Assembly: GCA_021810375.1 (NCBI GenBank)
Contig: JAJZJB010000003.1
Coordinates: forward strand, 1-46,755
Origin: Candidatus Micrarchaeota archaeon
GTDB lineage: Archaea; Micrarchaeota; Micrarchaeia; Micrarchaeales; CABMGC01
Reading direction: 5' to 3'
Length of the DNA: 46,755 nucleotides
Shown here: one piece after another, positions 23,249-31,177 of the stretch
Layout of the letters: each line of letters starts with the position of its first letter
Numbering within the stretch: position 1 is the first letter of the stretch
Position numbers and translations under genes: made by a program
Notes under the pieces: model-generated
The model's database searches: none
What the model saw: only the letters and a program-made list of their open reading frames with translations
Told to the model about the DNA's origin: nothing

Positions 23249-24391
23249 TCAGAGTCCCCTGAGCCTAGATGAAGTCCTTGCCATGCCGCCCAGCAGTTCT
23301 GCTATCTGGGTTATGAAAGCATAAGTCATGGCGCTGATCAGGGCAGGATAGAAGAGAACGGATAGCCAGAAGGCGCCCATTGCGCTGGAAGCAGTGCTAA
23401 TCTCCTCGACAAGAGGAGAAGACGGAGACGCTGAGTTCTGCACTGCATCCTTGCAGCTCGCCGAGCCTGGGGTACACCCGCCATAGCGTCCCAGGGCTCC
23501 TGAAATTGCACTTAATTGCGAGGCCGTGCCTCCCTGCGTTCCTGCTATCTGGGCAAATGCAATGCCAAATAATATCGGCATGAAGAAATAGAATCCTATG
23601 GCTATCGCCATTAGCATTCCGCCGAGATGCCTTGTCGGTATCAACGCCCTGAAGATTACCCCTGGTATAAGGAATACGGGTATTGCGGCATACATCATGA
23701 ATATTATTAGGTAAAATTCCAGGTTAAGGGCCATCAGTCCCGGCACTATGAGCTCTATAAGAGCAGATGCCGGCCAGAAGAATAAGTACACTACCGCGTA
23801 CTTGAAGATCGGCGGGAAGAAGCTGCTCTGGAACTGGCACTTGAATGCTGTTTCAGCAATGCACGTTGAGTACACCTGCGAAGCATAGTAATAATCTACA
23901 GATCCTATCGCATAGAGCTGCGCTACCAGGCCATCTGTCTGGCCTATGGTATAATTTATGTTATTTAAGGCATAGCTGTACGGGTTATAACTGCCCACGA
24001 AGAAGCCCGGCAGCAGCCCGAACATAAGCGCCGCTACGAATGTAAACAGTATTACGATTGTTGCAGTTGCTATGGCTTCATAGAGCTCTCCCATGCCGAA
24101 AATGCGAACACGGTCATTCCTTATGCCTATGCCAATCATTATGATCAGCGCCGCTATCGAGAAAGAGAAGAGCGTGGCCGCTATTGCTATGGGCTCCCAA
24201 TTGCTCCATACCTTTACTGCAGCTGCATTTATGGTGTTGCAATACCACGGCGCAACTACGCTTACTATTGCATTGGCCCCAAGCTTATTTACATTTCCAC
24301 AATATTGCGATATGGGATTTCCTTGCGCTCCTAGTGGCATTGCCACTAAGATGAGAGCAAGTATCATTGCAAGCGCGATCTTATTCATCAT
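23249..24391 (-). CDS. CedA/VirB6-like polytopic membrane protein, paralog 6
   Basis: GVIFRALIPTRHLGGMLMAIAIGFYFFMP motif; C-terminal IAELLGG. Confidence 0.65.
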   Translation of the reverse strand: MMNKIALAMILALILVAMPLGAQGNPISQYCGNVNKLGANAIVSVVAPWYCNTINAAAVKVWSNWEPIAIAATLFSFSIAALIIMIGIGIRNDRVRIFGMGELYEAIATATIVILFTFVAALMFGLLPGFFVGSYNPYSYALNNINYTIGQTDGLVAQLYAIGSVDYYYASQVYSTCIAETAFKCQFQSSFFPPIFKYAVVYLFFWPASALIELIVPGLMALNLEFYLIIFMMYAAIPVFLIPGVIFRALIPTRHLGGMLMAIAIGFYFFMPILFGIAFAQIAGTQGGTASQLSAISGALGRYGGCTPGSASCKDAVQNSASPSSPLVEEISTASSAMGAFWLSVLFYPALISAMTYAFITQIAELLGGMARTSSRLRGL

Positions 24392-25737
24392 ACCAGCCTC
24401 GTAAGCAGGGAAAGGAAGTCCATGCGCTCCCCTATTGCTGTTGAGAAATCTACTATAAATACGTCAACCACGGTAAGGCTAAGCAACGGAAGGAAAGTAA
24501 GCCCTATGGCCACGAATGCCCCGTATATCGCATATGCCCTGAAGAGCGGTACAATGACCGGGAGCAATGACTGTGCATAAGCCGCATTGCTAAAGTGCCC
24601 CAGGAATAAACTGAAGGTGTTGCTAACCCATGTGGCAATCATATTGACAATGGTCCCTACTACGCTTCCGGCAGGGCAGGTAGCCCCAAAGGCCGCTCCT
24701 ATACCGAATGAGAACTGGCAGAACTGCACCTCGGCCGTGTCCAACGCATGCGTCAAGAATCCAAGTGTTACTGCAGTCATGAGCGGGTATATAATCCCTA
24801 TGCCAAGCGCAAATGCGATTAGCGCACCCCCAAATGTCCTGGTCACTCCAAACGACCTTGCAATAAGCCCTACGGCCATGAGTATGGCGTATATTATCCC
24901 TGAAGCCGAGATGAGCATGAGCTGCACCTGGCTTAATATGAAGAATAGGTAAAGAGAATTCAGTAACGGTACAAAGTAGTGGAATACGGGCTGTATCGGC
25001 ATGAAATTTAAGGGTATCACAAGGCCTATGTTGTAAGAGGCGAAAGAACCCGTATTTATCGGACCTGGGCTGTCTGTATAATCTGGCTCTCCAGATTCTA
25101 CCTGCCCGTCAGACGCCCCTATCCCGCCAACCCCGCCGCCACCCACCACGCTAGGCAAGGTCGCACTGGTTGCCAGCTGTGAAGGGAAGTACAATGTGGC
25201 TGTAGGCGTAAGTGAAACTAGGGAAGCGACATAGAATGTGGATGTTGCGAAATTCTGCACATCCTGGTTGAATTGGTAGGTGTCACAGACCGAGAGGAAA
25301 TAGAGGTTATCGTAGCTTACGGCCGCCTGCCCTGGTGGCGGAGGCTGCGCACTTAGCGTTGTTATGGCATTTCCGCATTCGCTGCTGACAAGGCCTATGC
25401 CGTTCATGGCGCCATATACTGGAAGCGTGGCAACCAGTGCGCCGAAGGCTATGAAGATGAAGATCAGCACCAGAGACGCAAGCTCGTCGTATACCTTTGT
25501 GCGTATCCACGTTCTCATCTGCGTGTTGCCGAATGCTGGGCTTAGCATGTACATCATTGCAAGTATTGCTACGACCAGTATGACACCTATCGCTGCTATG
25601 CCTGCTCCTATGACATACGGTGATGTTATGTCATAGCATATGCCAGTGCAAGATCCTGCCGCTGCAGCCTGCTGCGGCGCATACGCTAATACCGCGAGGG
25701 CAACTATCATCACTATCACGAAGCTCCCTTTTCTCAT
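24388..25737 (-). CDS. CedA/VirB6-like polytopic membrane protein, paralog 5
   Basis: GLIARSFGVTRTFGGALIAFALGIGIIYP motif; start reassigned to MRKGSF (signal peptide, removes overlap). Confidence 0.65.
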   Translation of the reverse strand: MRKGSFVIVMIVALAVLAYAPQQAAAAGSCTGICYDITSPYVIGAGIAAIGVILVVAILAMMYMLSPAFGNTQMRTWIRTKVYDELASLVLIFIFIAFGALVATLPVYGAMNGIGLVSSECGNAITTLSAQPPPPGQAAVSYDNLYFLSVCDTYQFNQDVQNFATSTFYVASLVSLTPTATLYFPSQLATSATLPSVVGGGGVGGIGASDGQVESGEPDYTDSPGPINTGSFASYNIGLVIPLNFMPIQPVFHYFVPLLNSLYLFFILSQVQLMLISASGIIYAILMAVGLIARSFGVTRTFGGALIAFALGIGIIYPLMTAVTLGFLTHALDTAEVQFCQFSFGIGAAFGATCPAGSVVGTIVNMIATWVSNTFSLFLGHFSNAAYAQSLLPVIVPLFRAYAIYGAFVAIGLTFLPLLSLTVVDVFIVDFSTAIGERMDFLSLLTRLV

Positions 25738-25771
25738 ATGCTTCCTCTCTTTACGGTTACACGTGTAATCA

Positions 25772-29919: not shown

Positions 29920-29923
29920 AAAA

Positions 29924-31177
29924 TCATGCCATCTTGAGCTTGCCTCCTAGATGCAGCCTTATCGTGCCTCCGAGCATCTTGGCTATCGAATCCGTCAGCG
30001 GGTATATTATCACAAGGTCAAGTACAAAGAGTATGAGCTGCACTGTGGCATACCATCCTGTGCTTATCAGGCCGTTCATGAAGACATATATGCCGCCGAA
30101 GGAATCCCAGGCATATGCTATTATCTGGGTGAGCGATCCAGTTGATAGGACGGCGCCCAGAGCCCCCATGAATGACGTGCAAATGACAACGCCAAGGTTG
30201 CATGCCTGCGTAGGGCACGAGAGCGTTCCCGTGCCACATGGTGGCGGTATCATGGCAGCCGCCCAGGCTGCTACCGGCTGGTCCAAGAGTACAAGCGTGG
30301 CAGGGAATATTATCGAAGCTGCAACGCCTATTGCTATGAGCGTGCCGCCCATGCCGCGTATGAACGGGAAGGCGCGCATCACAAGCCCCATCGGTATAAA
30401 GACCGAGAGCCCAAGTCCAACAATCAACGGCAGCAGGGTTATCAGGACATCAAGCATAGATGTTACCGGGAAGAGAACAAACTGCACCATATCGAATACT
30501 ATCGACTCGAAGTGCTGGATCACGATGTTTCCGGATTCGAGCATGAAATTCTGGTACGGATTGGCACTGAACCCAGAATTTAGTGAGAAACCTACCCCTA
30601 TGAAAGGTATTGGTATTGGTATGGGCAGGTAAAGCAGCACCGTGGTTCCCTGCGCAAGCCCTATTGCTATTGCAGCCTGGCCTATGAAAGTCCATCCCGG
30701 CAGCATATTCTGTTCTGCGGTGCAGAGGTAACTCTCTGAGCTTGTTATCAGCGAGCCCACGTTGGCAAACAGGGTGCCGCTAGTGGGTGTTGCAGTTGGT
30801 GCAATAGCGATTGCAAGCCCGCTGACTACGGCAAGCACGCCATAAATCGCTATCACCACGAATATGGATTTGGTGAGCTCGTAATACTCTCCCTGCACCC
30901 ATGCGAACATGCCCCGCAGGTTGAATGCTCGCGCTACTATGTATCCTATCGCCACTATGTCGAATGCCAGGTCAAGGGCTATGAGCGAAAGGGCTATTGC
31001 TGTTGCAATGTCTGGCCCTGGTATCGTGCCTGACGCGCTGCCGCCTGGGATAACGGTGGGGCAGACATTCTCATATGTTATGCCACCGCCCCCTGCCGCT
31101 GCGAGTGGCGATGCGCCGACGGCTAGCAGGAGAAGCATGAAAGGAATCAGGAACCTCCGTTTGCCAGCCTGGAGCAT
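29924..31177 (-). CDS. CedA/VirB6-like polytopic membrane protein, paralog 1
   Basis: GLVMRAFPFIRGMGGTLIAIGVAASIIFP motif; C-terminal IAKMLGG. Confidence 0.68.
   Translation of the reverse strand: MLQAGKRRFLIPFMLLLLAVGASPLAAAGGGGITYENVCPTVIPGGSASGTIPGPDIATAIALSLIALDLAFDIVAIGYIVARAFNLRGMFAWVQGEYYELTKSIFVVIAIYGVLAVVSGLAIAIAPTATPTSGTLFANVGSLITSSESYLCTAEQNMLPGWTFIGQAAIAIGLAQGTTVLLYLPIPIPIPFIGVGFSLNSGFSANPYQNFMLESGNIVIQHFESIVFDMVQFVLFPVTSMLDVLITLLPLIVGLGLSVFIPMGLVMRAFPFIRGMGGTLIAIGVAASIIFPATLVLLDQPVAAWAAAMIPPPCGTGTLSCPTQACNLGVVICTSFMGALGAVLSTGSLTQIIAYAWDSFGGIYVFMNGLISTGWYATVQLILFVLDLVIIYPLTDSIAKMLGGTIRLHLGGKLKMA

Follow-up and report, generated by a model that had tools for sequence, protein, structure and literature searches.

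In the passages cited here, the Ced (CedA/CedE, CedA1, CedB/CedD) and Ted (TedA, TedC, TedB) systems of archaea are domesticated, chromosomal derivatives of type IV secretion systems (T4SS) that serve DNA import (PMC9905601). Saccharolobus has two VirB6-like paralogs, CedA and CedE, and the N-terminal domains of CedB and CedD each correspond to a different portion of that of VirB4 (PMC11868833). Among bacteria, the rvh T4SS of Rickettsiales includes five arrayed VirB6 paralogs, RvhB6a-e, which are ~80% divergent and form discrete, vertically inherited orthogroups (PMC2653234). Patescibacteria (CPR) carry chromosomal, reduced T4SS with VirB4, VirB6, VirB3 and VirB2-like parts; in one strain the system was reported as indispensable to epibiotic growth (PMC12102498). 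Here we describe an array of six tandem genes, p1 to p6 (proteins A to F), that encode putative VirB6-like membrane proteins in a genome of Candidatus Micrarchaeota (DPANN). The array lies in a stretch of 46,755 nucleotides (the window), positions 1 to 46,755 of contig JAJZJB010000003.1 in assembly GCA_021810375.1.

DPANN archaea depend on host cells, and the molecular interface of this dependence is largely unknown. Full-text literature searches found no published description of a system such as the one considered here in Micrarchaeota or DPANN. The main text of the genome paper on Mia14 does not contain the words VirB or HerA, its passages on secretion cited here give only type IV pili, Sec and Tat, and its supplementary tables might list these genes under other names (PMC5498576). 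We consider it fairly likely that the six proteins are ancient, non-interchangeable VirB6/CedA-like inner-membrane subunits of a T4SS-derived (Ced/Ted-like) apparatus.

The source is a metagenome-assembled genome of 601 kb, in 33 contigs and 64% complete. Two related stretches, 98% and 65% identical, are both from Candidatus Micrarchaeota. Near-identical DNA occurs in 14 sequencing runs from 7 studies (mine drainage, tailings and sediment metagenomes), and the same sequencing-run search listed no RNA runs.

Homology and architecture of the six proteins

The array consists of six head-to-tail open reading frames (ORFs) on the minus strand, at 23249-31177 of the window. The original prediction, a reading of the window's letters that proposed six divergent CedA/VirB6-like paralogs with variable Cys-rich loops, had noted their tight spacing and two short overlaps. 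Accordingly, 4 nt separate A from B, 9 nt C from D and 31 nt D from E (from the ATG start of E), and stop and start codons overlap by 4 nt at B/C and E/F.

All-versus-all comparison of hidden Markov models (HMM), named beforehand as a check on the relationship, found the six to be homologous; Pfam and NCBIfam searches gave no family match for any of them. In the comparison, hhalign of the six orthogroup profiles gave probabilities of 96.4-99.4% for all 15 of 15 pairs, and pairwise BLASTP returned weak, collinear matches centred on a shared motif. Residues R268, R274, A282 and P292 (protein A numbering) are invariant in a six-way alignment; across 123 family members the motif P is invariant and both R are retained in at least 90%. 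Given the profile matches in every pair and the shared invariant R, R, A and P, the six are almost certainly homologous, distantly related polytopic membrane proteins, as had been proposed.

The details of the proposed signature needed some revision. The shared motif was essentially right, but its spacing is G/T-x3-R rather than x2, and F has L in place of F/W. The GG/AN alternative stands, with AN replacing GG in B (p2), which also carries a 4-residue insert in the loop. In the same six-way alignment, the N-terminal Y...E..(E/Q) element ascribed to all six is present in five, and the C-terminal LG, described as mostly shared, is found in four.

Each protein has a signal-peptide-like start and about five hydrophobic spans by hydropathy. 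Hydropathy and AlphaFold2 (AF2) helices together give a layout in which a hairpin of transmembrane (TM) spans TM1 and TM2 precedes a large central helical loop, TM3 and TM4 flank an Arg-rich motif loop, and a second loop leads to TM5 and an amphipathic helix at the C-terminus. This polytopic plan of ~5 TM with a large central extracytoplasmic loop is that of TrbL/VirB6. Orientation is probably N-out/C-in, a prediction made solely from the positive-inside rule.

The loops are the least conserved regions. Mean top-residue frequency per 20-aa block is 0.09-0.3 there versus 0.65-0.77 at the motif block; this block-wise conservation, rather than dN/dS, was the gauge of loop variation, since one near-identical relative is too close for dN/dS and the others, at 19-60% amino-acid identity, are too distant. 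Cys pairs are specific to each orthogroup: C14+C86 in p2; C123+C154, C216+C232 and C422+C491 in p3; C55+C186 in p4; C122+C152 in p5; and C31+C51 in p6. Each pair is retained in 85-100% of orthologs. The earlier description of the loops as dissimilar is upheld by their lowest block conservation, and that of Cys pairing holds for conserved pairs of residues, with disulfides only predicted.

Protein sizes range from 380 to 550 aa in the window, and p3 always has large loops. Loop length varies greatly elsewhere, paralogs at locus L043 reaching 1143 and 733 aa. Single p1 or p4 orthologs (loci L021-L040) have weak Pfam matches to PKD (E 0.008-0.014) or SprB-repeat (E 0.00026) that may fall in variable loops; apart from such stray loop matches, no Pfam family was found in 21 orthologs of p1.

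Copy number and orthology across genomes

For 20 further genomes of the window's order, with one unpublished genome left out, we collected loci of 20 kb, called ORFs and ran hmmsearch with a profile of the six. The window has exactly six tandem members, as does every complete locus (19 of 19, each from a different genome); the 20th locus ends at a contig end and shows three. Full scoring of five genomes, one from each of five other families, yielded seven additional arrays, and these contain six ORFs each. All 26 complete arrays examined hold exactly six, with no lineage-specific gain or loss.

Phylogeny assigned array positions to distinct clades. In an IQ-TREE analysis of all 123 proteins every array position formed one clade (SH-aLRT 96-100), and position labels changed five times, which is the minimum, against a mean of 79.7 for shuffled labels. 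A tree of 72 proteins, representing 12 of the 21 sources with the nine other loci left out, gave UFboot/SH-aLRT support of 100/100 to each of the six position clades. This was the paralog tree across genomes proposed at the outset, and it recovered six orthogroups in a fixed order.

The pattern extends in part beyond the order. At locus L041, from another family, the array shows the same order by profile score and the same neighbours as arrays of the window's order, with clear score margins for p2, p4, p5 and p6 and small ones for p1 and p3. For the six most distant arrays, a tree of their 36 proteins equated position with clade for p1, p2, p5 and p6 (SH-aLRT 90-96); p3 and p4 needed two changes each, for a total of six against a minimum of five. 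Two genomes of different families hold two arrays each. Because the second arrays of both genomes pair within every one of the six positions, the whole array was duplicated before these families split, with all six genes kept in both copies.

Six fixed orthogroups in a fixed gene order are, on the evidence of these sequences, very probable. Since complete loci of the order always contain six and trees equate position with clade, the six appear to be old orthogroups rather than a recent or fluctuating expansion.

These data bear on the choice first offered, namely a hetero-oligomeric channel or alternative subunits for host specificity. On the latter account the six would be interchangeable, forming homo-oligomers used for different hosts or conditions, with loops acting as specificity determinants under diversifying selection. 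The loops are indeed the least conserved regions and accept insertions, as in the long L043 paralogs and the proteins with stray PKD or SprB matches, and duplicates of surface T4SS parts in Bartonella are read in this way in the passage cited (PMC2653234). However, families under diversification normally vary in copy number, and all 26 arrays have six. Gene order is also fixed, the orthogroups are supported at 100/100, the duplicated array kept all six genes, and the orthogroup-specific Cys pairs mean that loops are conserved within a position. We therefore favour the fixed-subunit branch and regard interchangeable subunits as quite unlikely.

A probable VirB6-like fold

Fold evidence comes from one paralog of the six, p4, whose AF2 model (123-row alignment) has a pLDDT of 79.9 and a pTM of 0.77. 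When the model was compared with 48,161 PDB chains by VIA-align, a search independent of Foldseek, rank 1 was TrwI/VirB6 of plasmid R388 (7o3v_F), the sole chain with Z of at least 8 (Z 9.5, rmsd 5.3, 253 of 261 residues, model residues 46-405). Legionella DotA ranked third (Z 7.2, 281 aligned), and the remaining rows were hairpins of 50-90 residues. A second look with VIA-align gave four chains with Z of at least 8, of which three, each from a separate entry, are TrwI (Z 9.3, 9.0 and 8.7). On its own this structural match to VirB6 is moderate evidence, because Z values of this kind can be generic for helical bundles.

Structural neighbours of p6 in the Atlas include a TrbL cluster (TM scores 0.41/0.44, 205 aligned), a weak lead. 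Another Atlas cluster, from the same phylum and with PF27251 CedA1 in 23% of members, reached a feature score of 0.88-0.89, below the 0.9 bar. No phylum other than this one is represented among the nearest Atlas clusters.

Considered together with the genes around them, the six are probably VirB6-like and T4SS-derived. The VirB6/CedA-like label given originally is backed by fold, with TrwI as the top match, and by gene context, and not by membership of a sequence family.

Genes encoded with the array

Upstream of the array a pilin candidate and the 267-aa protein, and downstream of it the 284-/276-aa pair and an ATPase (Table 1), are conserved in 18 of the order's 20 loci, and also at L041. 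The array is accompanied in the order by a VirB4-type ATPase and a probable VirB2-type pilin.

Table 1. Positions and predicted products of the array genes and of neighbouring genes in the window
Feature	Position	Strand	Description
p1 (A)	29924-31177	-	417 aa, VirB6-like paralog 1
p2 (B)	28714-29919	-	401 aa, VirB6-like paralog 2; most divergent of the six
p3 (C)	27065-28717	-	550 aa, VirB6-like paralog 3; largest extracytoplasmic loops, three conserved Cys pairs
p4 (D)	25772-27055	-	427 aa, VirB6-like paralog 4; structure modelled
p5 (E)	24388-25740	-	450 aa from ATG 25740, VirB6-like paralog 5; longest ORF from TTG 25833
p6 (F)	23249-24391	-	380 aa, VirB6-like paralog 6; best conserved of the six
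Pilin candidate, VirB2/TrbC type	33969-34346	-	125 aa, signal peptide and two hydrophobic helices
Polytopic membrane protein without known family	32019-33881	-	620 aa, ~8 hydrophobic segments
Polytopic membrane protein without known family	31219-32022	-	267 aa, directly upstream of the array
VirB4 N-terminal-domain-like protein, copy 1	21210-22064	-	284 aa, N-terminal TM hairpin and soluble domain
VirB4 N-terminal-domain-fold protein, copy 2	20383-21213	-	276 aa, N-terminal TM hairpin and soluble domain
P-loop ATPase, HerA/VirB4/FtsK superfamily	18863-20365	-	500 aa, soluble
Soluble coiled-coil protein, possible accessory	17331-18065	-	244 aa, downstream of the ATPase

Orthologs of the pilin candidate match Pfam TrbC (PF04956) in 10 of 19 cases at E of 0.05 or less (best E 9.7e-8) and T4SS_pilin in 5 of 19. 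The window's own copy scores 18.6 bits against TrbC, under the 27.9-bit cut-off, and a search of PDB sequences with the pilin profile gave nothing relevant. Cys38, just after the predicted signal peptide, is nearly invariant among orthologs, and the C-terminal Cys122 is invariant. We speculate that a head-to-tail disulfide might imitate the way in which bacterial T-pilin/TrbC is cyclised. There is, in addition, a weak, collinear alignment of the pilins with the six-paralog profile over its first ~110 positions (3-21 bits; hhalign 41.8%), which may be inflated by hydrophobic bias.

The 284- and 276-aa proteins match each other with an hhalign probability of 97.1% over 235 columns and hence are paralogs; the former has no Pfam match. 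An AF2 model of the 276-aa protein (pLDDT 83.6) was searched with Foldseek against PDB, and nothing reached an E of 0.001 or less; 9 of the first 11 rows were R388 TrwK/VirB4 (prob 0.82-0.99, best E 0.031). In VIA-align the top hit among the 48,161 chains was the TrwK/VirB4 N-terminal domain (Z 9.2, 166 aligned, rmsd 3.5), which covers model residues 70-273 and is the sole long alignment listed.

The ATPase is 63-83% identical across the order and matches Pfam DUF87 (7e-15; 56.1 bits vs a cut-off of 23.2), AAA_10 (5e-14; 52.7 vs 27.5) and the TraG P-loop domain (1e-10). Partial NCBIfam matches, with E values of 1e-16 to 3e-18, all fall far under the curated cut-offs: CedD, 65.7 bits (cut-off 600); CD1110-type VirB4, 63.7 (325); CedB, 62.7 (700); and TraC, 58 (567). 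Profile matches in PDB include HerA (1.5e-13) and VirB4 4ag5 (4.5e-9). Of the best 5,000 plasmid records found by tblastn, 4,728 are conjugative, and many matches are annotated TraC. The ATPase itself lacks both a membrane domain and an N-terminal domain; a VirB4-type N-terminal domain is supplied instead by the two upstream paralogous genes. By its sequence the ATPase seems to correspond to the C-terminal motor domain of VirB4. As modelled, VirB4 is split into two membrane-anchored N-terminal-domain proteins and a separate motor.

These neighbours also bear on the idea that the six are not related to T4SS at all. They could instead be a Micrarchaeota-specific family of transporters or envelope-biogenesis proteins beside a HerA-type ATPase, with a generic helical fold match. 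Such an origin fits the failure of Pfam, NCBIfam and PDB sequences to match the six, the non-significant Foldseek result, a Z of 9.5 that lies within the chance range for helical proteins, and an ATPase sequence as close to HerA as to VirB4. Three independent neighbours nevertheless agree on a T4SS, namely the TrbC matches in 10 of 19 pilins, the VirB4 N-terminal-domain fold and the TraC/VirB4 plasmid relatives of the ATPase. The VirB6 match spans 253 of 261 residues, unlike the 50-90-residue hairpins of other rows, and a minimal module of pilin, one VirB6-like protein, one N-terminal-domain protein and ATPase occurs in two genomes. A family unrelated to T4SS is thus very unlikely.

That minimal, single-copy module was observed in two genomes of one genus, amid housekeeping genes. 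At L048 (8398-10437) a 104-aa pilin accompanies one VirB6-like gene and one VirB4-N-terminal-domain-like gene; at L049 (7396-10708) a VirB6-like gene, which lacks cysteine, and an N-terminal-domain-like gene accompany a 506-aa ATPase. Relatives of the single-copy form carry the NCBI name 'hypothetical protein'. The single-copy protein scores 44-69 bits to all six orthogroups with none preferred, and its tree position is ambiguous; the module may be either the ancestral state or a reduction.

Other genes are less regularly associated. The 620-aa protein, which has no Pfam or NCBIfam match and was found by BLASTP in 8 of 20 loci, looks like an accessory neighbour at the level of the family. Orthologs of the 267-aa protein have no Pfam family in common; this protein was considered as a seventh array member and ruled out by an hhalign probability of 0.8% against the six-paralog family. 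The 244-aa coiled-coil protein is present in 14 of 20 loci, several of which end before its position, and has weak family matches only.

Further ORFs were noted on both sides. Between p6 and the 284-aa gene, a 323-aa ORF with a hydrophobic C-terminal anchor and no family match lies on the opposite strand (22205-23176, +). Because p6 directly adjoins the 284-aa gene in other loci of the order, with no ORF between, it looks like a lineage-specific insertion into the operon. Two small ORFs of 98 and 140 aa lie downstream of the ATPase (18139-18857, -), as does a gene for a protein of 806 aa that has two hydrophobic spans and belongs to no known family (14762-17182, -). A MoxR/ChlD-like AAA+ ATPase just upstream of the pilin (34439-35479, -) is probably unrelated to the apparatus, since it is in place in only 4 of 20 loci.

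In the genome of another family, the L041 ortholog of the motor ATPase (2488-5628, -) is 1047 aa long and has an intein with a LAGLIDADG endonuclease inside the P-loop domain (Pfam Intein_splicing 1.7e-20, LAGLIDADG_3 8.7e-24). Directly after each second six-gene array of the two genomes with duplicates is a giant secreted Cys-rich ORF: 1366 aa with 66 Cys at L043 (15750-19847, +) and 1230 aa with 55 Cys at L046 (2579-6268, -). The two are homologous to each other, have no Pfam match and are candidate tip, adhesin or cargo proteins.

Distribution and inheritance

Homology surveys covered the phylum Micrarchaeota. The array profile matched 268 of the 301 genomes at least 80% complete and the 276-aa protein profile 261 of the 301, counts that come from related genomes rather than independent samples. 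For the array, with at most six candidates scored per genome, the survey records presence and not copy number. One or two genomes in these tallies are flagged as unpublished, and no conclusion rests on them. Array and 276-aa protein are absent from the same families (f10, 0/7; f15, 0/5; and f17, f18, f20, f22, f26 and f31), and in f11 both occur in the same 2 of 15 genomes. Because this co-occurrence repeats over several families, the two appear to be linked even where they are not adjacent. In a representative library, 3,319 clusters belong to the array family at E of 0.001 or less.

A broad, family-level distribution has consequences for the possibility that the locus is an integrated conjugative element, that is, mobile DNA rather than a system of its host. 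The components are those of conjugation machinery, and the Mia14 genome paper, in the part cited, speculates on conjugative elements in genomic islands (PMC5498576). Against such an element stand the presence in 268 of 301 genomes by family and the clean orthogroup clades across genomes. The rest of the window is housekeeping in nature (DAHP synthase, GARS, CDC48, aIF2-gamma, Topo VI-B, L10e, tRNA synthetases and asparagine synthase), and the window showed no integrase, relaxase or coupling protein. A scan of viral contigs with the ATPase likewise found no relative. Mobile DNA is extremely improbable as an explanation. The apparatus lies on the chromosome and occurs in most Micrarchaeota, and the overall explanation that we prefer takes it to be vertically inherited.

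A model of the apparatus and its weighing

The full module would comprise a VirB2/TrbC-like pilin, one or two polytopic proteins, six VirB6-like proteins, two proteins with the VirB4 N-terminal-domain fold and a motor ATPase. In our model the six paralogs would occupy one pseudo-symmetric ring in the cytoplasmic membrane at 1:1:1:1:1:1, above a presumably hexameric ATPase. Towards the ATPase and the layer of N-terminal domains the ring would present the conserved cytoplasmic TM3-RxFxxTRxxGG-TM4 loop and the C-terminal amphipathic helix, and it would be both a platform for extraction and polymerisation of pilin and a passage for cargo. The divergent extracytoplasmic loops, probably stabilised by disulfides, would give each position its own surface and serve pilin docking and passage through the envelope; they may replace the periplasmic and outer-membrane parts VirB5, 7, 9 and 10 that the archaeon lacks. 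The role would be cell-to-cell transfer of DNA or other macromolecules, or contact with a host of the Thermoplasmatales type.

Arrays that always hold six and are duplicated only as six are what an obligate 1:1:1:1:1:1 assembly predicts, and they are hard to fit with interchangeable variants. Assembly of the six into one hetero-oligomer has, in our estimate, a slightly better than even chance. The six could instead be fixed parts without forming a single ring, located at different places or layers (base, stalk-like extension, pilin dock, S-layer passage) or in two or three sub-complexes. The data for fixed subunits apply equally to such an arrangement; the strong size differences (380-550 aa, with p3 always large-looped) agree with it, as does the fact that archaea without VirB5, 7, 9 and 10 need something to assume the roles of these proteins. 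The same TM core and cytoplasmic motif in all six suggest, on the contrary, equivalent membrane positions, and we think a distribution over several sites unlikely.

Several results count against VirB6-like subunits of a single assembly. Besides the relatedness of the genomes counted, six arrays of four other families are not adjacent to the ATPase module, so that linkage in one operon does not hold throughout. Orthology to the six named positions is ambiguous beyond the order for six other arrays: a tree mixing the order with distant families required 17 label changes against a minimum of 6, a further mixed tree was likewise ambiguous, and HMM score margins were small for the six other distant arrays. 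As to fold, only p4 was modelled for the match. Foldseek of this model against PDB found nothing at E of 0.001 or less and placed TrwI at rank 18 (E 1.5), the fourth chain in the second VIA-align look is a designed helical repeat protein (Z 9.0), and Z below about 13 may reflect a generic helical-bundle arrangement. By sequence, PF04610 (TrbL/VirB6) matched none of the six window proteins at E of 0.1 or less and, at E of 0.05 or less, none of the 61 orthologs scanned for p1, p4 and p6 (p2, p3 and p5 were scanned as window copies only). NCBIfam and Pfam gave no match for any of the six, and the family profile had no relevant match among PDB sequences. Finally, the solved VirB6, that of R388, is a homo-pentamer, from which a hetero-hexamer would depart.

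Two extensions of the favoured T4SS-derived apparatus are more tentative. That it serves exchange with a host or between cells has, we estimate, somewhat less than an even chance. This role, whether DNA import as in Ced/Ted or other host contact, is conjecture, proposed because of the analogy with Ced/Ted and the symbiotic lifestyle ascribed to cultivated Micrarchaeota in the part of the Mia14 paper cited (PMC5498576). A fuller version, in which an obligate hetero-hexamer, arisen from a one-copy module that persists in one lineage, is the conduit (pilus or pore) for DNA or macromolecules from Thermoplasmatales hosts, is rather unlikely. If true, the hetero-hexamer would match the six-fold ATPase and resolve the symmetry mismatch of bacterial systems, in which a VirB6 pentamer sits on a VirB4 hexamer.

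Should the T4SS-derived reading be correct, nearly the whole phylum Micrarchaeota would possess a chromosomal T4SS-like apparatus, which would be the archaeal equivalent of the Patescibacteria T4SS and would add a third branch to Ced and Ted in archaea. A strict set of six paralogs, duplicated only whole, would also be a natural experiment on assembly of the least understood T4SS component, and it yields a testable prediction, a hetero-hexameric channel.

Comparison with known systems

Like the array proteins, TrwI/VirB6 of R388 (7o3v, 8rt9, 8rtd) is a helical, polytopic protein of the membrane, and its gene accompanies those of a VirB2-type pilin and a VirB4-type ATPase; among the PDB chains compared, none matched the p4 model better. 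The array differs in having no PF04610 match, six paralogs in place of one homo-pentamer gene and conserved Cys pairs in extracytoplasmic loops; it also lies on an archaeal chromosome, and neither VirB5 nor VirB7-11 was seen with it.

Ced and Ted, in the passages cited, share the combination of VirB6-like channel, VirB2-like pilin and VirB4-like ATPase (PMC9905601). The sharing out of the VirB4 N-terminal domain over CedB and CedD, in the account cited above, recalls the split VirB4 of Micrarchaeota, and the weak alignment of the pilin to the N-terminal ~110 positions of the six-paralog profile is like that reported for CedA1 and CedA. Ced and Ted are found in Thermoproteota (Sulfolobales, Thermoproteales), whereas the Micrarchaeota array is found in DPANN, with six paralogs rather than one or two; any homology of these to CedA or TedA is putative. 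Lacking membrane and N-terminal domains, the ATPase also differs from CedB and CedD, far below whose cut-offs it scores. The original remark that Ced has a single CedA is dated in light of the Saccharolobus paralog CedE (PMC11868833, in the part cited).

For VirB6 expansion the closest analogue is rvh, whose RvhB6a-e bear out the earlier statement that such expansions occur in Rickettsiales (PMC2653234, as are the following points from the same passages). Both systems belong to host-dependent organisms with reduced genomes and have tandem paralogs conserved only around a short core. The rvh system is bacterial, however, with recognisable TrbL/VirB6 domains, large flanking extensions (674-1154 aa) and four or five copies, and the two expansions are independent. 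For biology the closest analogue is the T4SS of Patescibacteria. It is bacterial and of the monoderm conjugation type, and a six-fold VirB6 array is not reported in the cited part of the source (PMC12102498); like the Micrarchaeota apparatus, it belongs to ultra-small episymbionts.

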